A stretch of 64,000 bases of DNA, taken from Escherichia phage vB_Eco_F27. Shown here one piece after another: positions 16,203-44,734 of this stretch (position 1 is its first letter; every line of letters starts with the position of its first letter). The notes under the pieces were generated by a model. The model had not been told where the DNA came from, ran no database searches, and saw only the letters and a program-made list of their open reading frames with translations. The translations under genes and the position numbers were made by a program. The stretch lies in sequence record OP870146.1; one strand, written 5' to 3'.

Positions 16203-16740
16203 ACTCATACGCCTGGAACGCGTCATAGACATCTTTTTCTGTTTTAGATTGAGCATAATTCAACGCATCAGCGATTTGCCATTTTTCTGCATCTTCAACA
16301 TGTTTAGCGTATGTGCGTTTAACATAAGGAGAAAGTACTTTATCGACATTCGCAAATGTAGTTCCGCCATACTGGTGTGAAGCAACTTGTGCAGTAATTT
16401 GTGCCATAATTGCAGTAGCAACGCCAATAGATTTAGGCGTTTCAATTTGAGCATTGCCTAATTTAAATCCATTCTCAAGCATCCCCTTTAAATCGACCAA
16501 ACAGCAATTAGTAAACGGAAGAGCAGGAGAATAATCAATATCATGCATGTGAATGATTCCGCTTTCATGCGCATTCATAATAAAAGACGGGACCATATTT
16601 TTGGCAATGTGCTTAGACACAATACCAGCCATAAGGTCCCGTTGAGTTGGAAAAACACGAGAATCTTTATTAGCATTCTCGTTCAAAAGATCTTTATTAG
16701 TTTTATGAATTAATCCTTCAATTTCTTTTTCAATTTTCAT
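16203..16740 (-). CDS. nrdD: NrdD exon 1
   Basis: MKIEKEIEGLIHKTNKDLLNENANKDSRVFPTQRDLMAGIVSKHIAKNMVPSFIM... is near-identical to the T4 NrdD N-terminus. The reading frame terminates at 16195 unless spliced. Confidence 0.85.
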
Positions 16741-32462: not shown

Positions 32463-32861
32463 TTATTTGTAGGTTTTCATCCAATTCTTGAACAAAGCCG
32501 CGACGTCTTTCTCTTTAACGTTCAGTTTAATGTCCAACATTTTACCGCCCGCTGCTCTCGTTTGACGAATCTTAGCAGTACCGGTTTCACCATTCCACTC
32601 AACATAATATTGCCCAGTGTTCATAGCGATACCGTTGCCAAAGTCTTCGTTATTAGAAGTAGTGAATGCCAACTTCATGGTCTTAGAGACACGGGCCGGC
32701 ATGCCTGTCTGAAGGGCATTACGAACGCGAATAACCTGAGGAGTGGCCTGGGTCAGGTTCTCATTCAGTTCTTCGGTGAACTCTTCAGATTCAAACATCG
32801 CCAAAAGTTCTTTAGATGCAGGAATTACATTCTCTGCGATAAATTCTTTATATGTTTTCAT
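32463..32861 (-). CDS. capsid internal protein (CTS-bearing, IPIII/IPII-like)
   Basis: N-terminus MKTYKEFIAE, a T4 capsid-targeting sequence. 132 aa. Confidence 0.6.
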   Translation of the reverse strand: MKTYKEFIAENVIPASKELLAMFESEEFTEELNENLTQATPQVIRVRNALQTGMPARVSKTMKLAFTTSNNEDFGNGIAMNTGQYYVEWNGETGTAKIRQTRAAGGKMLDIKLNVKEKDVAALFKNWMKTYK

Positions 32862-32925
32862 TTTTTGTTTCCTTGTTTGTTTTGATAGAGTAATTATACC
32901 ATATTAATACTTAAGCGTAAACCGT

Positions 32926-33186
32926 TTAAGCTTTACCGCCAGAAATAATTCCGAAGTTGTTAAAATCGTATCCAATATCGTCAACATCTACTTTAGGACT
33001 TACTACAACATAAGCAATTTCACTACGTTTTGCATAGGTGTTTATTTCTTTACCATCACCACCTAAGAAAGAATACCCATTACGTTTTAATGAGCCAAAG
33101 TCTTCCGCATCACCAATGAAAGCTTTAACTTTAAATTTAGGACCTTTGGCATCTGCTTCAACGATAAATTCTTGATACATTTTCAT
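32926..33186 (-). CDS. capsid internal protein (CTS-bearing)
   Basis: N-terminus MKMYQEFIVEA. 86 aa. Confidence 0.55.
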   Translation of the reverse strand: MKMYQEFIVEADAKGPKFKVKAFIGDAEDFGSLKRNGYSFLGGDGKEINTYAKRSEIAYVVVSPKVDVDDIGYDFNNFGIISGGKA

Positions 33187-33192
33187 TTTTCC

Positions 33193-33296
33193 TTAGTAAA
33201 TTGATTTACCATAGTATTTGTACCAAGTCGGACGTTGAGCAATTTTTTCATCTAAGCGTGCTTGATTTATCGCAATGGACGCTTCGGACGGGTCAT
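33193..33296 (-). pseudogene. denV: denV (endonuclease V, pyrimidine-dimer glycosylase) remnant
   Basis: An intact promoter element, GGAGG SD and ATG ACC CGT (MTR, the T4 DenV start) are followed by a stop after 9 codons. A different frame encodes ..[34 protein letters not shown], matching the T4 DenV C-terminus. The track's 65-aa ORF 33193..33390 is an artifact that runs through the promoter. Confidence 0.55.
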
Positions 33297-33355
33297 AATT
33301 TCCTCCAAGTAGTTGATGAATGTATAGTATCAAAACCCTTGGAGGAAGTAAACAA

Positions 33356-33637
33356 CTATTTTTCTGAAGCGCCTGAAATATATTTTTCAAGACGTTGTTT
33401 CATTAAAGAGCCGTTCTTAGCGATTTCTTCCGGTTTATCGCACATACGCAACAAGGCTTCGAGCTTAACGATATCGCTGGTACGTTCAAATTTGCGAGTA
33501 TCTATCTTACTAGCAAGTTCAGAAATACGTGCTAATAGACTTTCGGCTTCAACCAAAGCTGCACCTAGCTTAGTTGCAAATGTGTCAGTAGCTTCGTTAA
33601 GAATAGATTCTGATAAAAATTCACTATATGTTTTCAT
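33356..33637 (-). CDS. capsid internal protein (CTS-bearing)
   Basis: Trimmed to [15 protein letters not shown]... (ATG ~33637). Confidence 0.5.
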
Positions 33638-34122
33638 ATATACGCTTTCCAAGTTCCTGTTTTAAATGTTGAGATTACGCGTTTCGCGCGATTAGGTGTC
33701 TGACGATACCATTTAGATTGGGCTAGATTTACTGCCGCTTCGTCCCAACGTTTCTGTTGAAGCATACGAAGAGAATTAGTAAAACCGGCAACGCCTGCTA
33801 CGCCCATTTGGAAGACCATATTGACCAATGCACATCGACGAACAGCATCTAAAGAATCATATACCGGTTTAAGTTTAGCATTACCCAAGATTCCGCGAAC
33901 GGCTTTATCAACGTCTTCATTAAATAGCTTTTCAGCCTCATCAAGGGTAATTGTACCGTTGCATTTACGACCGATCATTCTGTCAAGTTCAGCTTTAGCT
34001 ACGGCTAAAGAAGGGTTCTTTGTTACTAAATGGCCTATGCCAATCGTCCAAAAGCCTTCAGTGTCTTTGTATAAAGTCAGTCTAAGACCTTCGTCATTAC
34101 GAAGCATTTCAAATATATTCAT
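33634..34122 (-). CDS. e: endolysin (T4 lysozyme, gene e)
   Basis: Trimmed to [32 protein letters not shown]... (ATG 34122, GGAGG SD), 162 aa. Near-identical to T4 lysozyme. Confidence 0.95.
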
Positions 34123-34156
34123 AATACCTCCCACGTTTATAGGAGGTATTTATTAC

Positions 34157-34615
34157 TTATAGGAGGGTAGTGAGCACCTTATATAATGATTTGCCCATTA
34201 CATATTCCCATTGAGAAGGTTTAATTAAAGCGAATGCATCAAATTCAGGAATCTGACGTCCGTCTGGGAATGTATGATAGGAATTACAAACACTGTTTCT
34301 GAATTGCTCGTGCTCTACAGGGATGGTATATAGGAACAGATGAATATTCTTATTGTCTGAGTAATGATGTTCACCTAGGTCTTTCAGGAAGGCAGGGTCA
34401 TATTGTGTAAACCCAGTTTCTTCTTCGCATTCACGAATAGCGGCTTCAATAGGAGATTCGCCAGGTTCGACACGGCCTTTAGGAATATCCCACCGATGAG
34501 CTAATGCACCTTTAGGACGAGAACCAGTTACACGGCCCATGAATAATTCTTTATCTTTTGTCATGAAGATAATACCAGCGGACAACTCTTTCACTTTATT
34601 TTTCTTACTCATCAT
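34157..34615 (-). CDS. nudE: Nudix hydrolase NudE
   Basis: 152 aa, Nudix box GRVEPGESPIEAAIRECEEETG. Confidence 0.8.
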   Translation of the reverse strand: MMSKKNKVKELSAGIIFMTKDKELFMGRVTGSRPKGALAHRWDIPKGRVEPGESPIEAAIRECEEETGFTQYDPAFLKDLGEHHYSDNKNIHLFLYTIPVEHEQFRNSVCNSYHTFPDGRQIPEFDAFALIKPSQWEYVMGKSLYKVLTTLL

Positions 34616-34856
34616 CTCGGTCCCATGATTTGGCCATTAATTCGGACATAAATTCTTCAATGCGCGTTTCTTTAGATGGACTTTCACTATTAGAGACCGC
34701 AAGTTTGTAATCTGCAATAGGACAGAACATATCAAGGTCCATATTAAGGTCGTCTTTGATTTTTTCTTCTGACACATCTTTATCGTATGTGTACAGATAA
34801 CTATCACATGATTCTGATTTAATGTAAATTGCTATACTCATCTCAAATTCCTGCAT
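34605..34856 (-). CDS. hypothetical acidic protein
   Basis: 83 aa ORF. Confidence 0.4.
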   Translation of the reverse strand: MQEFEMSIAIYIKSESCDSYLYTYDKDVSEEKIKDDLNMDLDMFCPIADYKLAVSNSESPSKETRIEEFMSELMAKSWDRDDE

Positions 34857-35335
34857 TCGGTAATAAAACGTTCAACTTCATTATTCTTGGCCTTTATCTT
34901 GTCTTTACGTTCCTGTAAACTACTTTTAACAAGATTAATAATGATGCCTACAGTACCTCCACCAATAATACCACCAATAATACTTACAATAGTAGATGCT
35001 AATAAGATAGCGATAATATCTAGTACAGCAAAGGCACTTACTTTAGTACTAAAAAACCATACCGACGGTACAAATATAATCCATCCTGTTATCCATTGGC
35101 ACTTATTGAAAAACTTTTCAAGCTCAGCTTGAGTTGTTCGTATTACTTCATCGATAGGTTGATATCCATTAATGTATCTGTTCACAATAATACCTGCTGG
35201 CTGGTCGATTTTAAATTCTTGGCAAATATGTTTCACTAAGTAGGATGGACATCCTGTCCAATCTACCGAATAATACGAAATACCTTCGTTGCCATCGTCT
35301 ATATTAGACCAATATGTTTTGTTAATCATTACCAA
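34838..35335 (-). CDS. membrane protein
   Basis: 165 aa with TM helices (WIIFVPSVWFF..., VLDIIAILLASTIVSIIGGIIGGGTVGIIINLV). Confidence 0.45.
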   Translation of the reverse strand: MVMINKTYWSNIDDGNEGISYYSVDWTGCPSYLVKHICQEFKIDQPAGIIVNRYINGYQPIDEVIRTTQAELEKFFNKCQWITGWIIFVPSVWFFSTKVSAFAVLDIIAILLASTIVSIIGGIIGGGTVGIIINLVKSSLQERKDKIKAKNNEVERFITECRNLR

Positions 35336-36015
35336 CCTTCCATAGGGAATTCCAGATAAACTTGGGCATTGACACGAATTTCATTGGTAATCTTTTTAAC
35401 TCGGTCTGTATTACGAGATACACGTCCGAACCAACGCCATCCATTACTAATTGCACGAGAACCAGTGTGCCATGTTTGCCAATCAAACTGAAGAAGAGTA
35501 CGATCTGGAGCTTCCCATTTCTCTAGTTCACCTTTTTCAATTTTTTCGAGGACTTCTTTGTGCCACTGGCGATAGATAAGTTCGCCATCAGGAATCTGAC
35601 TGAACTCTGCAGTTCCTGTTGCAAAATGAGTAGGACACACATCAGCGTTAACAAGACCAAGAATATGTTCAGACAAATAGCGAGGATTGTCATAATCAGG
35701 TTGTCCTGCAGTAATAAAATGTTGTCCTGTTGGAATATCTGGGCGTGGTACGTCATCATGGTGATATCCAGGAATAGCAGGGTACCAACCAGGCATCAAC
35801 ATGTGGACTCGTGAATCAAATACTACATCCGAGTCTTTCCAATCGTCAGGGAGATTTTGAATAAAGCTACGAGTAATTGGGCCGCCATTATCAAAAGCAA
35901 AATTCAAATCGCAGTTAAAGAACATAGGCTCGTTTTTAATCTGGTCGTTTTTAATCGCATGAGCAAAACCACCTACTGCACGAGCTTGACTATTAAACAC
36001 TTTAGAACTATTCAT
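35329..36015 (-). CDS. hypothetical 228-aa protein
   Basis: Trp/His-rich, no motif recognised. Confidence 0.45.
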   Translation of the reverse strand: MNSSKVFNSQARAVGGFAHAIKNDQIKNEPMFFNCDLNFAFDNGGPITRSFIQNLPDDWKDSDVVFDSRVHMLMPGWYPAIPGYHHDDVPRPDIPTGQHFITAGQPDYDNPRYLSEHILGLVNADVCPTHFATGTAEFSQIPDGELIYRQWHKEVLEKIEKGELEKWEAPDRTLLQFDWQTWHTGSRAISNGWRWFGRVSRNTDRVKKITNEIRVNAQVYLEFPMEGW

Positions 36016-36016
36016 A

Positions 36017-36322
36017 TTATTTTCCTCGACATTCTTTAATGAAATTTTCTAGATTGGTAGATTCAATAGCTTTTTTACGAGCTTCAACATGTTCTTCTTC
36101 AGACAATTTACATTTATAATTGACCCAGACATTATGGTCGAAACTAGTCGTGGCATATAATAACAAAGCTCCGACGAATAATAAAAACGGTGATAAGAAT
36201 ATACAACCAGGCACACCATCCATACTGTAAGCCTTTTGTAATACTGCAACAGAAAGAGTTGCGTAAAAAAGTGATGCAAATATTGTTAAAAGACCAATTC
36301 GGTTGGTTTCGCCTAATTTCAT
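36017..36322 (-). CDS. small membrane protein
   Basis: 101 aa, two TM segments. Confidence 0.45.
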   Translation of the reverse strand: MKLGETNRIGLLTIFASLFYATLSVAVLQKAYSMDGVPGCIFLSPFLLFVGALLLYATTSFDHNVWVNYKCKLSEEEHVEARKKAIESTNLENFIKECRGK

Positions 36323-36351
36323 AATATTCTCCTCATGTTTTAATAGGACTA

Positions 36352-36382
36352 CTATAACATAGTCCTATAATTGTGTAAACAG
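36352..36382 (-). promoter_or_regulatory. T4-type early promoter GTTTAC-18-TATAGT
   Basis: Minus strand TGTTTACAcaattATAGGACTAtgtTATAGTAGTCCTAT. The -10 lies inside a perfect 9-bp inverted repeat. Confidence 0.55.
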
Positions 36383-36392
36383 TTTTGCGAAA

Positions 36393-37349
36393 TTATTTGA
36401 AAGGTTTTACCATATGGAAATTTTGTTTGAAACGTTTGACGTAATCGTCATGTCCTAAGCTTTGGTACATACTTACTACTTTGCTGTAGTTTTCCCAGGC
36501 GTATTCACGGAACCAACCGGAGGTGATGCTTGTGCAGACTTTTTCTAATGCCATCATGAAACTGGCTTCAGGGTTAATTTTAAAGTCATTAGGAATCTGA
36601 GAACGTTCTAATGCTAGTACACATGATTCTTCATATACACCGGCCAATTTGACCATTTCTGGTAACGATTCGAACTTCTCGCGTGAGGTCATGACTTCAG
36701 AACCGTCTTTCATATAAAATGTATAAGCCGGACGGTCTGTTAGTGCAATGGCTTCATGAATAGTATCATGGTCATATGTATAGATGTCATCTTTAAAGAA
36801 CGCACTTTTAGAAGTGTCAAGAACCGGGTGAGCATAGTTCAAGGTTTCTTTCTGGCGTTTCAGCATAATTTCAGTAAGTTCATCGTTCAGTGTAACACCT
36901 TTACCACGAAGATACTGAATATGGTTCATAGTCTTTAAAAAGAATGGATTATTTTTCTTGAAACGATGAGACATCTTAATTGCAAGACATATCTCAGGAG
37001 TTGCCCAGTAAAACCCGTTCAAACGGTCTTTAGTCAAATTTTTCTTGGCGTATTTTAAAAGGTCATAAGAAGACGTGAAATCTTCAGGAGTGAGTTCACC
37101 GACTAATTCACGGACATTAGTGATTGCCGGAACAATATATGCTTCAAAATGAGTTTCGCGTCCATTATGGAAGCATTTGAAAACTTGGACATCAGGGTTA
37201 TCTTGGTGAACATATACACCCATCATTTGATTTTTGAATGCATTCCAAGAACCTTGGTCCGCAATAAAGTCCCAATCGCTATTTTTGATAGCGCTAGAAT
37301 CAATAAGACCATGATAGTGAAGTGCACGAGAACCAATAACTAACATCAT
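36393..37349 (-). CDS. hypothetical 318-aa protein
   Basis: No motif recognised. Confidence 0.45.
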   Translation of the reverse strand: MMLVIGSRALHYHGLIDSSAIKNSDWDFIADQGSWNAFKNQMMGVYVHQDNPDVQVFKCFHNGRETHFEAYIVPAITNVRELVGELTPEDFTSSYDLLKYAKKNLTKDRLNGFYWATPEICLAIKMSHRFKKNNPFFLKTMNHIQYLRGKGVTLNDELTEIMLKRQKETLNYAHPVLDTSKSAFFKDDIYTYDHDTIHEAIALTDRPAYTFYMKDGSEVMTSREKFESLPEMVKLAGVYEESCVLALERSQIPNDFKINPEASFMMALEKVCTSITSGWFREYAWENYSKVVSMYQSLGHDDYVKRFKQNFHMVKPFK

Positions 37350-37377
37350 AATATTTTCCTCGGATTAATTCATTAAC

Positions 37378-37629
37378 TTAAATTTCACGACATGCGATAT
37401 TATATTCGTCCCAGAGGTCATCGTGTGAAGCCTCTACCAATGGAACGATTGTACCGTTTATGTCTTCATTATAAGGGCAAATTGTACAGTGCGCATCTTC
37501 GAATCGGATGCCTTTGTGTTCAGATTTTTTATAACGCATATCGAATATCTTTGCAAACTTTTCACGAGTAATGGTTTTAGCAACCACTTTGGTTCCGATA
37601 CTTTCGTAATAAATCATTGTGGACTCCAT
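37378..37629 (-). CDS. Cys-containing small protein
   Basis: 83 aa with CTICPYNED...C. Confidence 0.4.
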   Translation of the reverse strand: MESTMIYYESIGTKVVAKTITREKFAKIFDMRYKKSEHKGIRFEDAHCTICPYNEDINGTIVPLVEASHDDLWDEYNIACREI

Positions 37630-37645
37630 TTAATTTGATAGGACT

Positions 37646-37675
37646 ACTATAACATAGCCCTATCTTGTTGTAAAC
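37646..37675 (-). promoter_or_regulatory. T4-type early promoter GTTTAC-18-TATAGT
   Basis: Plus text gataggactactataacatagccctatcttgttgtaaac. Confidence 0.5.
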
Positions 37676-37679
37676 TGTT

Positions 37680-37877
37680 TTAGCAAGAATAACTAGATGA
37701 TACCCAGCCTTGAACAGTGATACTATTATGGGATAATGAGATCGCGTCCTGGAGATTCAGACCTGCGTTATCTTCAATCCATAATGTAACTTCTTCGCGT
37801 TCTTCTGTTGCAATTTGGAACAGGTTTTCCAGAGCAGCTACTGCCGTACGTACAGCACAATCTAATTCACGAGACAT
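37680..37877 (-). CDS. paralog 1 of the GxWVxSSxxC-terminus family
   Basis: 65 aa ending ...VQGWVSSSYSC. Confidence 0.5.
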   Translation of the reverse strand: MSRELDCAVRTAVAALENLFQIATEEREEVTLWIEDNAGLNLQDAISLSHNSITVQGWVSSSYSC

Positions 37878-37886
37878 ATTGTTTCC

Positions 37887-38159
37887 TTAGCAAGTGTGAG
37901 AAGATGCGACCCAACCACCAGTTTCGAGGCTCAGGTTGTAGTCGTATTGGTAAACGTCAGCCCATTCAGCATAGCCGTTTTTTGTACAACGTTCAAGATC
38001 GGCTTTAAGATGTCCGGGTGAATGATAGGTTCCACCCATACCATAAGCTGGATACAAGTCGAATGTTGTGTTTTGTTTATCAGCAATTTCTTTGGCAGCC
38101 TCAATAGCTGCATAGATTTTTGCTACAGCTTCAGCCAGTTCGGTTTGTTCTTTAGACAT
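37887..38159 (-). CDS. paralog 2 of the GxWVxSSxxC-terminus family
   Basis: 90 aa ending ...TGGWVASSHTC. Confidence 0.5.
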   Translation of the reverse strand: MSKEQTELAEAVAKIYAAIEAAKEIADKQNTTFDLYPAYGMGGTYHSPGHLKADLERCTKNGYAEWADVYQYDYNLSLETGGWVASSHTC

Positions 38160-38168
38160 AATGATTCC

Positions 38169-38474
38169 TTAGCACAACGCAGAAGACGAAACCCAAGCAC
38201 CTTCAGTAATAACGTAACCATTACCTTCACGCTTAACATCGCCACCATTATTTTCAATTTCATCTTTCATCCACTGGGATACGATTTCACCCTTAGGATA
38301 ATAAGTACGACCACTACCATAATCACCTACAGAAAATGATACGGCATATTGGTCTGCGATCTTTGTTGCTTCTTCTTCGATACGTTCAGCTTGATTCAGA
38401 AGTTTATAAATTGCATCTGAAGCGGATTTGGCATCATTAAACTCTGGTACTTTAATTTCAATAATCTTACTCAT
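38169..38474 (-). CDS. paralog 3 of the GxWVxSSxxC-terminus family
   Basis: 101 aa ending ...EGAWVSSSALC. Confidence 0.5.
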   Translation of the reverse strand: MSKIIEIKVPEFNDAKSASDAIYKLLNQAERIEEEATKIADQYAVSFSVGDYGSGRTYYPKGEIVSQWMKDEIENNGGDVKREGNGYVITEGAWVSSSALC

Positions 38475-38830
38475 TTTCTACATTCCTTAATAAAGTTTTC
38501 GATTGTTTCATTTTCACGTCTAGCTAGGAGTTCATTATAACTAATCGTTTGAGAAGCGTAAACCTTTTTATTTTTCTTGTTGTGGTTTATAAAATCGTAG
38601 TAAAAATAGACTACAGTACAAAATGATGCGATGGATGCAAAGGCTTGGGTATACCGTAAGTCCTGCCATTGGTCTGTGAATCCACCAGTGTTCCCTATAA
38701 ATCCTAACACAACGCCGTCAATAAGAAATCCAACTAATCCAAAGGCAAATCCCATGCCAATACTCATAATAAAAATTAGAATGTTCTCACCAAGAGAAGG
38801 CCATACGGTTAAGAGTTGAGGCTTTTGCAT
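38471..38830 (-). CDS. membrane protein
   Basis: 119 aa, two or three TM segments. Confidence 0.45.
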   Translation of the reverse strand: MQKPQLLTVWPSLGENILIFIMSIGMGFAFGLVGFLIDGVVLGFIGNTGGFTDQWQDLRYTQAFASIASFCTVVYFYYDFINHNKKNKKVYASQTISYNELLARRENETIENFIKECRK

Positions 38831-39234
38831 CTTATTTCCTTAACGAATTCCATAGCTTCTTCATATTCATACTTTTTAACAGCTTCATCATACTGAGCTT
38901 GGGCTTTTGCGCACTGAACTTTCCATTCGCGTACTCGAGCTCTATAATGACGGCCTTGGTGCCAATATCCTGCCCAATTAATAGGCATTAATAAAAATGG
39001 CACAATAAACGGCCCGGCTATAATAAGTAAAAACACTGCATCAGACGATATAACTTCACTAGAATCTAAAACAGCTCCTATAATCATAAAGATTAAAAAT
39101 GCTAAAGCTAAAATAGGGCCAAATAGTACTTCATTTGGGATTAATTTACGTTTGTATTCGTATGCCCAGGGCTTAATTGGCATGTACAGGGTTGGCTTTG
39201 ACATATTCTCTACATTCCATAATAAATTGCTCAA
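38809..39234 (-). CDS. membrane protein
   Basis: 141 aa, TM hairpin then a basic helical tail. Confidence 0.45.
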   Translation of the reverse strand: MSNLLWNVENMSKPTLYMPIKPWAYEYKRKLIPNEVLFGPILALAFLIFMIIGAVLDSSEVISSDAVFLLIIAGPFIVPFLLMPINWAGYWHQGRHYRARVREWKVQCAKAQAQYDEAVKKYEYEEAMEFVKEIRCKSLNS

Positions 39235-39796
39235 GGATTAAATTGTTAGTGAAATTAGGACTAACAACCATAGTTTCATAAAGCGCATCAATAGCACTTA
39301 AAGCATCAACTCTTTTAAGCAAAGGCTTGCCTTCATACATAGTTTCAGAATCGATGATTAACGTAAAGTAATATTTTTTATTATCGACTAGAACTTCCGT
39401 ATCGATATAAAACATATTAGACCTCAGAAGCTTATCTCTAAAACCATAATAATCTTCAGAGCGTTCGCTGATATATTCCCATTCAGTGTTTAAACAACAA
39501 ACAGACCATGTAGGAGCAACGAAATCGGTGAATCTAATATCATGGTCTGCAACTAGTTTAGCAATAGCTCCGATATCATGAATCATAATACCTGGGGCTA
39601 ATAAAGATTTTCTGCTATGGCTAGCCGTTTTCTCAGTAGTCTCATAAGAAGACGACCAGTACCATTTACGTCCAGTTGCAACATATCGTAATGAATCAAC
39701 TAAAGATGTAGGTGGATTTACCTTATCTCGGAACTCTTCGAACATTGAGTCAATATCATTATTTTGGTTTCGCATGTTAACTCCTTTATTATCCAA
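39173..39796 (-). CDS. hypothetical 207-aa protein
   Basis: No motif recognised. Confidence 0.45.
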   Translation of the reverse strand: MDNKGVNMRNQNNDIDSMFEEFRDKVNPPTSLVDSLRYVATGRKWYWSSSYETTEKTASHSRKSLLAPGIMIHDIGAIAKLVADHDIRFTDFVAPTWSVCCLNTEWEYISERSEDYYGFRDKLLRSNMFYIDTEVLVDNKKYYFTLIIDSETMYEGKPLLKRVDALSAIDALYETMVVSPNFTNNLILEQFIMECREYVKANPVHAN

Positions 39797-39824
39797 AAGG
39801 AGGACCGGAGTCCTCCGTATTATT

Positions 39825-40418
39825 TTATTTCAAAGAGTTAATATATTCTTGTACATCAGCAGAAGTGGTTTCGACGCCGGCTGGAGTGCCATTGAACGTT
39901 TCAACACGAGTCAGAGTGTCTTCGATATCAACCTTAGTCAGTGCAGCGATTTCAATTACATCATCGGCCGTAGAGATACCAAGGGCATTGGCTGCTCGAG
40001 TTTCACGAATGTATTCGAGTTTGATTGCCAGGTTCTGACGAGCATCGTCAAGTTCAACCACCTTACGAGCAATTTCAATTCGCATAGCGGCATACCCGTC
40101 AGCTTTTGTATTAAGTTGTTCGGCAGTTCGACGATACAGAAGACCAAGCTTAGCATGCATGGTAACATCTTGTCCTTCAGCCAGGAGCTTACGAATTTCA
40201 CGTTCCTTAGAAGCGGCTTGCTTGTTCTTTTCATTAACAAGTTCGCGAATACGTTTTTCTTCATTAATAGATTTAACAGAAGCCGTTTTTAGTTCTTTGA
40301 TTTGGGTAATCAACTTATCTGCAGCTGCGTTATACTGTTCTTCGACAGTCAGATTTTTAGCCATAGCAGTACCAAGTTTAGTGCGGATGAATTCAACAAG
40401 TTTCTTCAGTGTGTTCAT
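39825..40418 (-). CDS. coiled-coil protein, possibly PspA/IM30-like
   Basis: Trimmed to [10 protein letters not shown]... (ATG 40418, AAAGG SD), 197 aa. All-helical heptad sequence with stretches resembling PspA (e.g. [34 protein letters not shown]). The similarity is weak. Confidence 0.4.
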
Positions 40419-40459
40419 ATTATTACCTTTCAATTGGTGGTTTATTATCCAACGAGAGC

Positions 40460-40488
40460 ATTATACTCTGCTCTCAAGAGATTGTAAA
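40460..40488 (-). promoter_or_regulatory. promoter TTTACA-17-TATAAT (copy B of the duplicated ~50-bp element)
   Basis: 47/49 identical to 11195..11245. Confidence 0.55.
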
Positions 40489-40716
40489 TTATTTTTTAAT
40501 CAAATTGACATAAAACTCGGCGTCTTCCGGGTGCATGCCTTCGCAGTATTCTTCAACCATGAACTTCTTAACAGCTTCATAAGGACCGCTCAGATTAAGC
40601 TCAGTTGTCCAGAACTTGGAATCTTGGACCGAATCGATACGAACTTCAGGGTGACGGTTGCGAATAACTTCTTCAGTGTATTCATAATCAACGACATCAA
40701 TACTAACTGTAGCCAT
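40489..40716 (-). CDS. hypothetical acidic protein
   Basis: 75 aa ORF. Confidence 0.4.
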   Translation of the reverse strand: MATVSIDVVDYEYTEEVIRNRHPEVRIDSVQDSKFWTTELNLSGPYEAVKKFMVEEYCEGMHPEDAEFYVNLIKK

Positions 40717-40769
40717 TTTGTTTCTCCTCTTGATTTGATGTGATTACTATAACATAAACGTACTTAGAT

Positions 40770-40928
40770 GTAAATTATTTCAACGTCACCTTTAGCGGCT
40801 TTATAACCTTCAGCCCAAGATACAACAGAGTTTTTATCCGAGGATTCAAATTCAGGCATTGGACTTTCACCAATATTCACACAGTATGTTTCTTCATTTT
40901 CATCGAACCAAATAATTAAAGTAGTCAT
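40770..40928 (-). CDS. small hypothetical protein (52 aa, below the track cutoff)
   Basis: ATG 40928 (MTTLIIWFDENEETYCV...) preceded by GGAG. Confidence 0.3.
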
Positions 40929-40996
40929 TTTGTTTACTCCTCTGTAGTTGATAAGTCTATAGTATCACCATCCTTGGTGCTTGTACATCATTATTT

Positions 40997-41302
40997 TTAA
41001 TTTTTCCAACTTAACAACTTGTAGTGTCCTTCATTCATACGTGGTTTATCCCAAGAAATACTAATATATGATTCGCTGTCAATAGAAGTCGCCGGGTTTT
41101 TCTCTACCGTAAGACCTTCACTTTCCAGCCATTCAATAGTATTTGCGCATAAATCAGAAGAACACCTAATCGGAAACCGGCAAGATTTTTCACCTTTAGC
41201 TGCAGTGTTATACATCTTTTCTAAAATACGCTTTTGCACGTTTTTAAAAATAGTTTCAGCAGATTCTTCAGATTTTTTATTCAGTTCAGTGTAAAGACTC
41301 AT
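40997..41302 (-). CDS. hypothetical
   Basis: 101 aa ORF, GAGGAGAAT SD. Confidence 0.45.
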   Translation of the reverse strand: MSLYTELNKKSEESAETIFKNVQKRILEKMYNTAAKGEKSCRFPIRCSSDLCANTIEWLESEGLTVEKNPATSIDSESYISISWDKPRMNEGHYKLLSWKN

Positions 41303-41329
41303 AATATTCTCCTCATGTTTTGATAGGTC

Positions 41330-41358
41330 TATAGTAACACATCTAGGGAAGAAGTAAA
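41330..41358 (-). promoter_or_regulatory. T4-type early promoter GTTTAC-17-TACTAT
   Basis: Plus text tgataggtctatagtaacacatctagggaagaagtaaac. Confidence 0.5.
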
Positions 41359-41389
41359 CAACTTTTTCAGTAAGTTATAAACCCCCTAA

Positions 41390-41405
41390 TGGGGACCGAA
41401 GTCCC
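41390..41405 (-). other. GGGGAC-UUCG-GUCCCC hairpin 3' of the 208-aa internal-protein gene
   Basis: Same motif family as 2338 and 23729. No U-tract follows on the minus strand, so likely an RNA-stability or processing hairpin. Confidence 0.45.
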
Positions 41406-41411
41406 CATTCT

Positions 41412-42038
41412 TTACTTACGAGTTTTTGCATATTGAGCAGCGTCAGCAGCCAAACGACCTGCCTGACGAAGTTTTTCTTTAATCGCATCGTGAAGTGGTT
41501 GAGTGTACTTCAAACCTTCGATAGTCAAATAAAGACGATAAAGGTCCGGGGTATCAAGGTTGTTGATATGTTGGCCATTACGAAGAATATTGAATTCACG
41601 AACGAGTGAAGATGTATCGGATTCAATATCACGAACAAGCGAAGATAGTTGTTTATATTTTTTTTCCAGACTAGAAGTATCAAACTTAAGAGCAGGAGCT
41701 TTAGGAGTTGCTTTTACTTCAGGCTTAGGCTCAGGTTTTGCTATTGCTTTAGGGGTCGCAGGTTTAGGAATGGAAGGAGTAGGTTTTACTTTAGGCGAAC
41801 CCGATTTAGCAGAAACACCACCACTAACAATATCTTTGAATGCTTTAGAAGCTCTGTAATATTCTTTTTGGCTGGAAGTGTCGATACCGTACATGGCTTG
41901 AACGTTTTTGAAAAACTCTGTACTAGTTTTTGTACCAGAAATAGCATCGTAAGCAGCTTGCCATTTCTCTTTTGTCATACGTACACCGGCTTCGGTGATT
42001 ACTTCCGTTTCGGCTAAAAATTCATTAAAAGTATACAT
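41412..42038 (-). CDS. capsid internal protein (CTS-bearing) with a Pro/Lys-rich repeat region
   Basis: N-terminus MYTFNEFLAETEV, a CTS variant. Central SGSPKVKPTPSIPKPATPKAIAKPEPKPEVKATPKAPALK. 208 aa. Confidence 0.5.
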   Translation of the reverse strand: MYTFNEFLAETEVITEAGVRMTKEKWQAAYDAISGTKTSTEFFKNVQAMYGIDTSSQKEYYRASKAFKDIVSGGVSAKSGSPKVKPTPSIPKPATPKAIAKPEPKPEVKATPKAPALKFDTSSLEKKYKQLSSLVRDIESDTSSLVREFNILRNGQHINNLDTPDLYRLYLTIEGLKYTQPLHDAIKEKLRQAGRLAADAAQYAKTRK

Positions 42039-42082
42039 CGATGGTCCTTAGAAAGTAGGTTTATTGTTTACTATATTTATAC

Positions 42083-42111
42083 AAAAAAGCCCCAACCTTT
42101 CGGAAGGGGCT
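42083..42111 (-). terminator. rho-independent terminator ending the tRNA/stable-RNA transcript
   Basis: Identical to the 26804..26832 hairpin, followed by U6 on the minus strand. Confidence 0.65.
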
Positions 42112-42119
42112 ATATACCT

Positions 42120-42414
42120 TGTCGGGGTTTCCACCTACTAAGGCAAGTGTTTGTACGAAACGCCGGGATTCGAACCCGGTTATTGAGTAGTTGACGCTAC
42201 TCAATATTTTTAAAAGGCCATATCTCGACCATATCCGAACGTTCCGTCAAAAACGCTACTCGGCTTACGGCAAAGATATTTCCTCGAATCGATAATTCGG
42301 TGCGCCGTTTCTGCTGTGATGTAAGGGGATATTAACAAATCGTAAAGATTTATTAAGACCAGTCCTTACTCAGGGAACATCAGTCCGACGACTTACCGGT
42401 AGCGACCCGGCTTC
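42120..42414 (-). ncRNA. candidate small stable RNA(s) / tRNA-like remnant (T4 species 1/2 RNA position)
   Basis: No ORF. Minus strand carries a perfect T-arm CCGGG-TTCGAAT-CCCGG (42161..42180) with a matching acceptor-like pairing CGGAACG/CGTTTCG. The 26 nt preceding it form a perfect 10-bp hairpin instead of an anticodon arm. Confidence 0.3.
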
Positions 42415-42759
42415 TTATTTTGGCATATCATCAATTTGCTCTCGACGCCGACGCCATAGATTAATCGCTTCATAAACACATTCTGCGTTTGGTATATGAC
42501 GGCAATAATATAATGATTCGCGTTTCTGGAATCGATGTTGCAATGGGATTTCGTTTAAAAGGTCTTTACGGTCAAAGTATTCAAAACTAGTTAACCCGGA
42601 ACGGTTTTTAATGAACTTCCAATGACCAAATTCATTTTGAACATAGATGTAATCTGCATGTTGGTATAACAAATTAATCAATCGGTCTGAAATAACTGTA
42701 TCATGTTCGTTAAAATAAAACGTTAAATCATGAACTACTAAGTAAACATTACCTTTCAT
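42415..42759 (-). CDS. hypothetical 114-aa protein immediately 3' of tRNA-Arg
   Basis: The track ORF 42415..42807 overlaps tRNA-Arg. It is trimmed to MKGNVYLVVHDL... (ATG 42759, GAGGAAA SD). Confidence 0.45.
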   Translation of the reverse strand: MKGNVYLVVHDLTFYFNEHDTVISDRLINLLYQHADYIYVQNEFGHWKFIKNRSGLTSFEYFDRKDLLNEIPLQHRFQKRESLYYCRHIPNAECVYEAINLWRRRREQIDDMPK

Positions 42760-42777
42760 ATTTTCCTCACTTAAAAT

Positions 42778-42854
<77 letters not shown>

Positions 42855-42954
42855 ATGATGCGGCTTTGGGTGTTTCAGTGTTACTCGTTTGTAGGTTCTA
42901 CTTTTAACCCTTATTCGAACAACTTACCTACCTAAGAGCGTACTCACCGCGAAT

Positions 42955-43029
42955 TGGTGGCCCTGGCTGGTTTCGATCCAGCTACCTATCAGTTATGAGC
43001 TGACAGCTCTCCCATTGAGCTACAGGGCC
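42955..43029 (-). tRNA. tRNA with CAU anticodon (Met, or Ile2 if lysidine-modified as in T4), CCA encoded
   Basis: Hand-folded. Acceptor GGCCCTG/CAGGGCC, D-stem GCTC/GAGC, anticodon stem GTCAG/CTGAT with loop CUCAUAA, T-arm GCTGG-ATCGAAA-CCAGC, discriminator A, then CCA. Confidence 0.8.
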
Positions 43030-43091
43030 TAAATAAATTTCTATTATGAAAGGCCCTTGAGGGAGCACCTTTGGTAATAGAGGGTAGATTA

Positions 43092-43118
43092 ATAATAACA
43101 CATAATTCTTAAAGCAAA
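43092..43118 (-). promoter_or_regulatory. candidate MotA-dependent middle promoter for the tRNA transcript
   Basis: Minus strand tTTGCTTtA (MotA box), 12 nt, then TATTAT, about 60 nt upstream of the first tRNA. Confidence 0.4.
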
Positions 43119-43125
43119 TTACGTT

Positions 43126-43416
43126 TTACCGTACCATATTAATGTAGTTATATTCAATGCAACGTAATTTCAAAGGGTTCTTGAAAATATCATATTCAAG
43201 AGGGCCTTTTTCTGTTTCAATAAAGAAATCAAAGTTAACTGTGTTAAATTTAACGTCTTCACAGAGTAATTTAACTTGTGAAGATGAACGGTCGATATAA
43301 ACCTTTTCAACCTCAAAGATAGTCAGAATACCGTAGTCATTAACCAGTGCTTTAGCTGCACGTTGGTCGCTTTCATATCCGTTCTCAATGGACGATACTT
43401 TAGCATAAAGAATCAT
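43126..43416 (-). CDS. hypothetical
   Basis: 96 aa ORF. Confidence 0.4.
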   Translation of the reverse strand: MILYAKVSSIENGYESDQRAAKALVNDYGILTIFEVEKVYIDRSSSQVKLLCEDVKFNTVNFDFFIETEKGPLEYDIFKNPLKLRCIEYNYINMVR

Positions 43417-43793
43417 GAATGTTCCACCATTTCAAAGGTATGAGCATCAACAATATGATACCAGTCAAAATTTTCTTCCGCGTTTTTATAAATTTCGCGA
43501 AGAGCTTCAACAGTTTTTCCTGTAGCAACAAGATCGTCAATACCACCAAGAGGATAACAGTAATAACCAGCAAACAGAAGGAAATTAATAGTTTCTGTAG
43601 GTTCTGGATGCAGAACACCGTTATCGTCTACCACTTCAAAGAAAGTGTAAGAAGGAGTACAAGTTTTAATCCAAGCCCATGCTTGAGCTGCTGAATCAAA
43701 TGGTCTGCGTATCAAACGACAATCAGGGTCTTTAGAAGGATTTGCTTCAAAATCCGCATATACGTGATATTTCATTTTACTCACCTTTTGCAA
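43413..43793 (-). CDS. hypothetical
   Basis: 126 aa ORF with ATGA coupling to the downstream gene. Confidence 0.45.
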   Translation of the reverse strand: MQKVSKMKYHVYADFEANPSKDPDCRLIRRPFDSAAQAWAWIKTCTPSYTFFEVVDDNGVLHPEPTETINFLLFAGYYCYPLGGIDDLVATGKTVEALREIYKNAEENFDWYHIVDAHTFEMVEHS

Positions 43794-43983
43794 TTTTATC
43801 CATAACGATAGCGATTAAGCCGATTAGAAATGCTACTACCAATGAGATAGAGTTTTCAGTTGTTGTCAGTAGTCCACAAATGAATCCTACAAACATCGAA
43901 AAACTAAAAGCCATTGAAGCAATTACTACAGCAACATTACGAATCAGTTCAGCGCGTTTCATTTTATTTCTCCATTTACTCAT
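43777..43983 (-). CDS. small membrane protein
   Basis: 68 aa, two TM helices. Confidence 0.4.
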   Translation of the reverse strand: MSKWRNKMKRAELIRNVAVVIASMAFSFSMFVGFICGLLTTTENSISLVVAFLIGLIAIVMDKIAKGE

Positions 43984-43999
43984 TTGTTTTGATAGGACT

Positions 44000-44029
44000 A
44001 CTATAACATATCCCTATAGGCTTGTATAC
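44000..44029 (-). promoter_or_regulatory. early promoter GTATAC-18-TATAGT
   Basis: Plus text gataggactactataacatatccctataggcttgtatac. Confidence 0.45.
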
Positions 44030-44031
44030 CT

Positions 44032-44295
44032 TTATTTCAAATATATTGCGTATTTTTTATAGCCACCAGGCTCGTGTCGAAGACCTTTATCATTCGCAAA
44101 ACGTTGAATGTTATTGAACTGATTTTCATCAAGTTCGGATGTGTCAAATATGAAAAAGTTTCGTTTGTTGCCAAGCGTGATATGCGGAGTTAAGTCAATG
44201 TTATACAAATTAAGAATATCAGCAATAACCTGATTGACCGCTTTGTTAATTTTCACACCAGACGATTCTGAGATGAATTCGTTGAAAGTTTTCAT
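44032..44295 (-). CDS. capsid internal protein (CTS-bearing)
   Basis: Trimmed to MKTFNEFISESSGV... (ATG ~44295). Confidence 0.5.
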   Translation of the reverse strand: MKTFNEFISESSGVKINKAVNQVIADILNLYNIDLTPHITLGNKRNFFIFDTSELDENQFNNIQRFANDKGLRHEPGGYKKYAIYLK

Positions 44296-44326
44296 TTTAG
44301 GTTCCATTTGGTTGTTTTGATAGGAC

Positions 44327-44358
44327 TACTATAACATAATCCTATCGTGTTGTAAATT
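44327..44358 (-). promoter_or_regulatory. early promoter ATTTAC-20-TATAGT
   Basis: Plus text gataggactactataacataatcctatcgtgttgtaaat. Confidence 0.45.
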
Positions 44359-44668
44359 ATTTTATGCCTTTAGAAGAAATGGTGTTTTGGCGTTTGGTCC
44401 CTGTTTGTGAAAAATCGTGGTTATCGATTTGGTCGACTCGCATAACACCAAATGCAGATTTAATTTTAGCCTTTGAACCTTTTTTGATACTAATTATCAT
44501 ATAAGTATCATTTTTCTTATATTCGAAATTTGTTACTTCAACGCCTTGATTAGAAATTGACTTAATAATAGCATTAGCGTATTCATCATCTAACGGACCG
44601 GTGGTGTTAATAATAAAATTTTTATCGGCTTTAGTAGCTTCAGCGATAAACTCTTGATAAGTTTTCAT
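44357..44668 (-). CDS. capsid internal protein (CTS-bearing, IPI position)
   Basis: Trimmed to MKTYQEFIAEATKADKNF... (ATG 44668), the canonical T4 CTS. Confidence 0.55.
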   Translation of the reverse strand: MKTYQEFIAEATKADKNFIINTTGPLDDEYANAIIKSISNQGVEVTNFEYKKNDTYMIISIKKGSKAKIKSAFGVMRVDQIDNHDFSQTGTKRQNTISSKGIK

Positions 44669-44705
44669 TTGTTTTTTCCGTTTGGTTTGAGATTTGATAG
44701 GATGA

Positions 44706-44734
44706 TAGTAACACACCATCATCCTTATGTAAAC
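44706..44734 (-). promoter_or_regulatory. T4-type early promoter GTTTAC-17-TACTAT
   Basis: Plus text gataggatgatagtaacacaccatcatccttatgtaaac. The -10 is flanked by aggatgat/atcatcct. Confidence 0.5.

Follow-up and report, generated by a model that had tools for sequence, protein, structure and literature searches.

No other phage proteins reach the host cytoplasm as early as the internal proteins (IPs) of T-even phages. They were reportedly identified through their signal sequence by Repoila et al. in 1994, and Comeau et al. are said to have described more than 30 internal-protein variants in 2007. The subject here is a 64,000-nucleotide stretch of Escherichia phage vB_Eco_F27 (record OP870146.1; hereafter, the window), in which six genes, designated A to F, begin with the capsid-targeting sequence (CTS) of the T4 internal proteins. 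We consider it probable that the six encode T4-type internal head proteins that are packaged, processed, and delivered with the DNA, that at least some of them act against host defenses, and that recombination supplies the repertoire with new members.

Rao and Black (2010, PMC3012670) describe the T-even internal proteins as highly diverse defense proteins with the CTS alone in common, and the CTS is sufficient for loading foreign proteins into the head (PMC3012670). According to Silas et al. (2025, PMC12373910), T4 Ip1, Ip2, and Ip3 are inhibitors of GmrSD type IV nucleases, a different one for each protein. These three targets act on DNA with glucosylated hydroxymethylcytosine (glucosyl-hmC). 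The original prediction for the window, which was made from the letters alone, had stated that T4 IPI* blocks GmrSD. IPIII is needed on ECOR17, and host-made IPIII works without a CTS, in the cytoplasm (PMC9391042).

The original prediction listed six CTS-bearing open reading frames (ORFs), and a six-frame scan of the window confirms them, ends and N-termini included. Exactly six ORFs, all on the minus strand, begin M-[KY]-[TM]-[YF]-x-E-F-[IL]-x-E; a looser CTS pattern picks out the same six and no others in the whole window, and 100 shuffles of the window give 0 matches to the CTS pattern. The longest ORFs of C, E, and F begin farther upstream, at TTG 33652, ATG 44307, and ATG 44722, respectively. 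The CTS starts of these three genes agree with the gene lengths annotated in relatives, and a promoter-like site at 44733-44705 falls downstream of the alternative F start.

Mean pairwise nucleotide identity among the six genes is 0.74 in codons 1–10 but 0.29–0.35 on either side of them, over codons 11–30 and the 30 nt that precede the start. Since 26 of 100 comparisons of codons for identical residues within the tag involve different codons, it follows that conservation, or selection, acts on the peptide. The tag closes with [IL]-x-E at residues 8–10 in all six proteins. This is the form of the T4 prohead-protease site, and D has a second [IL]-x-E that ends at residue 16. D also deviates from the tag consensus MKT[YF]xEF[IL]xE at residues 2 and 3, starting MYTF. 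In pairwise BLAST, the six proteins share only about 10 N-terminal residues with one another and with T4 IPI, IPII, and IPIII. The tag of F is identical to that of T4 IPII and IPIII over 11 residues. T4 IPI starts MKTFKEFTSTTTPVSTITE; equating the tag with the T4 CTS was therefore right for IPII and IPIII and wrong for IPI.

By their mature parts, the six proteins sort into five unrelated families, with B and F as distant paralogs (25% identity, both phrog_2667); none is an ortholog of T4 IPI, IPII, or IPIII. In PHROGs, B, C, E, and F are assigned to “internal head protein” families, and A (phrog_15461) and D (phrog_2280) to “unknown function”; no Pfam family was found for any of the six proteins. 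The predicted mature products have masses of 8–22 kDa and isoelectric points (pI) of 6.3–9.7, as against 8–20 kDa and pI 9.0–9.7 for the T4 proteins. Four of the six are basic (pI 8.9–9.7), with B and C near-neutral (pI 6.3–6.4). The likeness to T4 IPI–III lies in the N-terminal CTS, the [IL]-x-E tag end, the small size, and the similar pI, as well as in the neighborhoods of all but D (beside e/denV and beside 57B). At F and at the denV remnant that precedes B, it extends to an early-type promoter-like site whose −10 region is covered by a hairpin. In contrast, the mature parts of the six have no detectable similarity to those of T4. The comparison with the wider T-even set, in which names such as Ip7 and Ip9 are used, is similar: B, C, E, and F belong to PHROG families of that set, and the same hyperplastic loci and shuffling are seen, whereas A and D are of “unknown function” or “hypothetical” among the matches listed. 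The internal-protein interpretation is already in the literature, and four of the six genes are already annotated as internal head proteins.

The window belongs to a Mosigvirus, and the region matches these RB69-like coliphages nearly end to end, the best match being vB_EcoM_G2469 (98.3% identity over 95% of 13.5 kb). The CTS genes sit in three hyperplastic spots, namely, vs.8-e (A, B, C), the rnaC-adjacent spot (D), and trna.4-57B (E, F). In the vs.8-e spot, gene A (32463..32861, minus strand; 132 amino acids (aa), MKTYKEFIAE) encodes a member of the JS98 orf114 family, a candidate internal protein with the CTS tag. Gene B (32926..33186, minus; 86 aa, MKMYQEFIVE) encodes a protein 97% identical to RB69p125, an “internal head protein”. 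Gene C (33356..33637, minus; 93 aa) belongs to internal head protein family phrog_3499, and the annotation of phage mogra calls it a “putative internal head protein”. The start codon of C, an ATG, overlaps the stop codon of the lysozyme gene e (33634-34134). RB69p127 (NC_004928, 6923-7204), which is 92% identical to C, starts MKTYMNFYQNLS. This tag is broken, which points either to decay of the CTS or to an error (a frameshift or a misread base) in the RB69 record, which is an old one.

Homologs of A occur in 49 phage records (tblastn), mostly of Dhakavirus (JS98 orf114, 93% identity) and Klebsiella Marfa-like phages, and are a “hypothetical protein” in every case among the matches listed. A is absent from every Mosigvirus relative examined, and HMD-9, a Tequatrovirus, is the only record that spans most of the A-B-C stretch. 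Across 12 A homologs at 77–94% identity, the CTS is invariant. The C-terminus of A (32463-32480) reads NWMKTYK, which resembles the start of the CTS. A recent scar of a recombined CTS was considered and ruled out, since the ending is conserved family-wide as MK(T/S/I/V)(Y/H)K.

In the trna.4-57B spot, gene E (44032..44295, minus; 87 aa, MKTFNEFISE) belongs to internal head protein family phrog_7673 and is called “Ip9” in mogra. Gene F (44357..44668, minus; 103 aa, MKTYQEFIAE), of internal head protein family phrog_2667, is “internal head protein 7” in relatives. The RefSeq record of JS98 (NC_010105) has an unannotated 97-aa ORF between trna.4 and 57B, at 16261-16554 on the minus strand, that begins MKTYQEFIKES and looks like a missed internal-protein gene.

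Even among closely related, near-identical phages, the CTS genes found at a given position differ. From vs.8 to gene 1, the window has six CTS genes, G2469 seven, mogra seven, mar005P1 six, RB69 six, HMD-9 eight, JS98 five, and T4 three, with 13 mature-domain families across the eight phages. The T4 count agrees with the original prediction. The set had also been called expanded, which holds against T4 and not against the relatives: six CTS genes is typical, the relatives having five to eight, with T4 at the low end. A scan of IMG/VR for a degenerate CTS found at least 120 stretches; together with the loci already compared, these give at least 180 distinct CTS ORFs in at least 81 single-linkage families, a rough count that possibly includes a few chance ORFs.

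Three of the four swap junctions that we mapped lie inside the CTS codons, at 32833, 44269, and 44646, that is, in the first 23–29 nt of A, E, and F, in comparisons with three different close relatives. Homology between G2469 and the window ends at the A stop codon (32468) and resumes at 32833, 29 nt into the A coding sequence, at the end of the CTS. From these breakpoints, the mature part of A has replaced the IpIII-like mature part and the whole IpII-like gene of G2469 through a crossover in the tag codons. Similarly, E stands in place of RB69 ipI, with a breakpoint at 44269, and the breakpoint of F against mar005P1 is at 44646. The fourth junction, that of the D cassette, is at flanking hairpins. 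The tag codons appear to act as crossover sites for the exchange of internal-protein cargo domains. This arrangement may be compared with the IP-associated early-promoter/stem-loop elements and the PeSL cassettes (Arbiol 2010; Comeau 2014). As in those, promoter-like elements, some of them with a hairpin, flank most of the genes, and at both borders of the D cassette there is a GC-rich hairpin with a T-run. The difference is that three of the four junctions in the window are in CTS codons and not in a promoter or hairpin, and that the hairpin is weak at E and absent at A.

Upstream of three of the genes (A, E, and F), and on the minus strand in each case, is a promoter-like site of the T4 early type (TTTAC-17-TG-TAnnnT). 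The site of A, TTTACG-17-TG-TATAAT at 32893..32921, has no significant hairpin. That of E, TTTACA-17-TG-TATAGT at 44328..44356, has a weak hairpin and the shared leader TCCTATCAAAAC, and that of F, TTTACA-17-TG-TACTAT at 44705..44733, has a hairpin over the −10 region (z −2.5). At 33296..33352 on the minus strand, a hairpin (minimum free energy (MFE) −10.2 kcal/mol, z −5.2) likewise spans the −10 region of an early-type promoter-like sequence. This element originally served denV and now precedes the denV remnant, and then B. Significant hairpins are found only in the F and denV-remnant elements, which resemble the one that precedes T4 ipI. Gene C comes straight after e, starting on the e stop codon. 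IP-associated elements have been described as early promoters with weak, AT-rich stem-loops (PMC2839356), a description that the elements of the window may fit. As for denV (endonuclease V) itself, it is a dead remnant (33196-33352, minus). The C-terminal 36 codons are left, 92% identical to G2469 DenV, out of frame with the original start, which now gives MTRPKRPLR-stop; relative to G2469, RB69, and T4, about 297 bp have been lost at an ACGGG microhomology.

Gene D (41412..42038, minus; 208 aa, MYTFNEFLAE; phrog_2280) marks a candidate third IP locus. It is directly downstream of the rnaC homolog and 2 kb from the ipI locus. The same spot holds a 154-aa CTS protein in mogra, a 146-aa one in RB69, and two in HMD-9, and between e.8 and rnaC of T4 there is no annotated gene and no CTS match in the scan. 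The cassette swapped relative to mogra spans 41366-42115, with GC-rich hairpins at both edges. The left one, GGGGACTTCGGTCCCC (41388..41409, minus; MFE −9.5 kcal/mol, z −4.6), is just downstream of D. The right one is a terminator-like GC-rich hairpin with a T-run, AGCCCCTTCCGAAAGGTTGGGGCTTTTTT (42083..42111, minus), between rnaC, which ends about 40 nt upstream of it, and TATAAATA, a T4 late-promoter motif at 42074..42081 (minus), 43 nt upstream of the D start codon. This right-hand hairpin was read directly from the sequence and is absent from the terminator-scan output; the G2469 record annotates a terminator there. Because TATAAATA is not enriched window-wide (8 seen, about 12 expected), the motif alone was dropped as evidence of late D transcription. 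The argument for late-type control rests instead on its conserved position, since the order of hairpin and then TATAAATA also precedes the D-family genes of G2469, mar005P1, JS98, and HMD-9, five with that of the window.

The D family occurs in 138 phage records of several genera and is hypothetical, unannotated, or unnamed in all of them among the matches listed. Most D homologs begin MKTYNEFLNES. The distant phage-type representatives that reach the N-terminus, among those retrieved, begin MLKFKDILTES, MITFNEFLNES, MLKFNEFLAEG, MNFKEFLKEE, or MISFNEFVDG. A profile search against 1.84 billion representative proteins shows a narrow family, with 14 representatives at E ≤ 0.001, and brought no new functional link.

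Structure prediction of the mature domains, as originally proposed, gives confident helical domains for D and fails for A. The AlphaFold2 model of D has a helical N-domain, residues ~18–73, with a predicted local distance difference test score (pLDDT) of ~85, and a three-helix C-domain, residues 120–208, with pLDDT > 90; for A, with 12 close homologs, no usable model was obtained (mean pLDDT 38.6). Between the two D domains is a disordered linker of Pro, Lys, and Ala (residues 74–113/117, pI 10.3), with a PKP-rich tract at residues about 74–117. The tract is absent from the T4 internal proteins, as had been remarked from the letters. In composition only (repeated KP, PK, and AKP), it is like the proline-rich spacer of TonB and lysine-rich DNA-binding tails. 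A TonB identity (NCBIfam model, E 0.0045, 16.9 bits) was rejected because the cut-off is 315 bits and the match covers the low-complexity stretch only; no homology is implied. Foldseek with the D model gave no match in the PDB at E < 1 and two matches in BFVD at E ≤ 0.001, both unnamed or uncharacterized, one of which is the family member of Yersinia phage fHe-Yen9-01. Two representatives of the D family (P0038 and P0041) keep the N-domain and linker and have different C-domains.

For these six proteins, we infer packaging, cleavage, injection, and anti-defense activity from T4. The tag would direct the proteins into the prohead scaffolding core, and the prohead protease gp21 would remove it after Glu10 and possibly also after Glu16 in D. 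The mature proteins of 8–22 kDa would remain with the packaged DNA inside the head and be carried into the cell along with it. Some of them, at least, would block first-line defenses, by analogy with Ip1–3 those of GmrSD-like type IV nucleases, and recombination would renew the repertoire, with the shared CTS codons and the promoter/hairpin flanks as crossover points. This proposal is supported by the four genes in PHROG “internal head protein” families, by the names Ip7, Ip9, and internal head protein in relatives, and by the tag or CTS-like start retained in the homologs of A and D. Further support comes from mature sizes and pI values that overlap those of the T4 proteins, and from a layout that matches that of T4 ipI, ipII, and ipIII, as the early-type promoter/hairpin elements, where present, may also do. 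The predicted arms race fits the sequence evidence, the published model, and the near-identical relatives with different CTS genes. The genes occupy three separate places and not one locus.

The targets may differ from those of T4. RB69 and other Mosigvirus phages have arabinosylated 5-hydroxycytosine and not glucosyl-hmC (PMC13326640), and the DNA of this genus is probably so modified. The T4 Ip1–3 targets may therefore not apply here, and, as a matter of speculation, the likely targets are nucleases or sensors that recognize arabinosylated 5-hydroxycytosine, or other early defenses. It is tempting to go further and to propose, tentatively and as a combination that we regard as doubtful in its entirety, that the D family is a third, unrecognized IP locus by rnaC, transcribed late only and encoding modular injected proteins made of the tag, a helical domain, a Lys/Pro-rich spacer, and an exchangeable helical C-domain, and that the Mosigvirus set includes inhibitors of defenses that recognize arabinosylated 5-hydroxycytosine DNA, unlike the targets of T4 Ip1–3.

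Several points weigh against the assignment of the six as T4-type internal head proteins. The IP genes are said to be confined to two loci (PMC2839356), and D is outside both, has YT and not KT at residues 2 and 3, and has a late- rather than an early-type promoter motif. The prohead protease gene lies outside the window. Beyond the tag, none of the six resembles T4 IPI, IPII, IPIII, or any solved structure, so that an anti-restriction role is drawn purely from analogy. When the PDB was searched by sequence with B, E, F, and the D profile, the matches were all at chance level (E ≥ 0.06), with no internal protein among them. A look through the literature, that on RB69-like and JS98-like phages included, turned up neither virion proteomics nor cleavage data nor a phenotype for the six.

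Other phages also carry proteins in the head that are delivered with the DNA, including P22 gp7/16/20, the T7 core proteins, and the SPN3US ejection proteins. These are conduit or core proteins of large size, conserved and for the most part essential, and they lack this tag. The six CTS genes, by contrast, are small and exchangeable, and it is very likely that they are non-essential.

It may be asked whether the packaged proteins are specific effectors at all, or mainly bulk, serving as counter-ions for DNA or as packaging and ejection aids. A T4 head holds about 1000 internal protein molecules, whose lysines contact DNA phosphates (PMC3012670), and the basic character of four of the mature proteins, like that of the Lys/Pro-rich D linker, agrees with a bulk role. 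Such a role would leave unexplained the five unrelated folds, the rapid turnover of cassettes among near-identical phages, and the near-neutral B and C, and specific nuclease targets are now known for all three T4 internal proteins (PMC12373910). We regard it as unlikely, while noting that it possibly holds for some members and is compatible with the six being T4-type internal head proteins. A different question arises for D. The polymorphism of its locus, which holds other CTS genes in mogra, RB69, and HMD-9 and none in T4, indicates that D is dispensable and exchangeable like the other internal proteins, and C-domains are swapped within its family. Both observations count against D being a late structural or assembly head protein, that is, a core or scaffold accessory with the same tag and not an injected effector. 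There is still a small chance that it is one, given the late-promoter motif and terminator-like hairpin conserved in five D-family genes, the 138 records in several genera, a wider spread than that of typical IP cassettes, the elongated, all-helical, two-domain build with a spacer in the AlphaFold2 model, and the position outside the two classical loci.

Finally, the shared N-terminus might be kept as a DNA or RNA signal, either a recombination site or a translation-initiation region, in which case the proteins would be ordinary early cytoplasmic proteins that are never packaged. Swap junctions within the CTS codons and early-type promoters at A, E, and F would be expected of such genes. However, T4 ipI, ipII, and ipIII have the same early-type promoters, and yet their products are packaged (PMC3012670). 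Moreover, the differing codons for identical residues, the persistence of the peptide motif in relatives with diverged DNA, and the invariable closing of the motif in the protease-site form [IL]-x-E make a nucleic-acid signal highly improbable.

The surrounding gene order is T4-like: vs.8, internal-protein genes, e, nudE, the e.x cluster, rnaC/rnaD, tRNAs, trna.2-4, internal-protein genes, 57B, 57A, and gene 1. The gene 1 product is 95% identical to RB69 gp159 (RB69 kinase) and 62% identical to T4 gp1. The rnaC homolog (42154-42292, minus) has 98.6% identity to the T4 small stable RNA over 139 nt, and the rnaD homolog (42299-42418, minus) has 87.6% identity to its T4 counterpart; an Rfam search at the gathering threshold reports only the two tRNAs in this region. 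These are tRNA-Arg(tct) at 42778-42854 and tRNA-Met(cat) at 42955-43029, both on the minus strand, a reduced set as in Mosigvirus relatives, T4 having eight. The longest ORF at 42415-42807 overlaps tRNA-Arg, and its TTG start is therefore probably spurious.

Two C-terminal patterns are seen among other genes of the window. Three tandem genes (37680-37877, 37887-38159, and 38169-38474, minus; 65, 90, and 101 aa) all end G/A-W-V-x-S-S-x-x-C-stop, and two of their three mogra counterparts share one pVOG assignment (VOG2413). In the e.2-e.5 cluster, five genes (34838-35335, 36017-36322, 38471-38830, 38809-39234, and 39173-39796, minus) have a near-C-terminal (F/V)(I/V)xE(C/I)R motif. At several e.2-e.5 junctions, the nucleotides of this motif also hold the start signals of the following gene, namely, its ATG and a ribosome-binding site of the GGA type, so that the peptide motif may partly reflect a conserved translational-coupling junction.

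The concept of tagged, injected internal proteins is established for T-even phages, and the finding is real, correctly interpreted, and ordinary for the group. What is modestly new is that the A and D families, hypothetical in all matches listed, are unlabeled as internal proteins. Other modest additions are a third locus, apparently under late-type control, that encodes a modular protein, and the mapping of junctions to the tag codons. Phages of this group are in therapeutic use. The worth of the six genes lies in a candidate list and not in new biology: since all three T4 internal proteins have proved to be specific inhibitors of type IV restriction, each uncharacterized family is a candidate anti-defense protein and a probe for a host nuclease, and this value is greatest for A and D, which are unlabeled as internal proteins among the matches listed.

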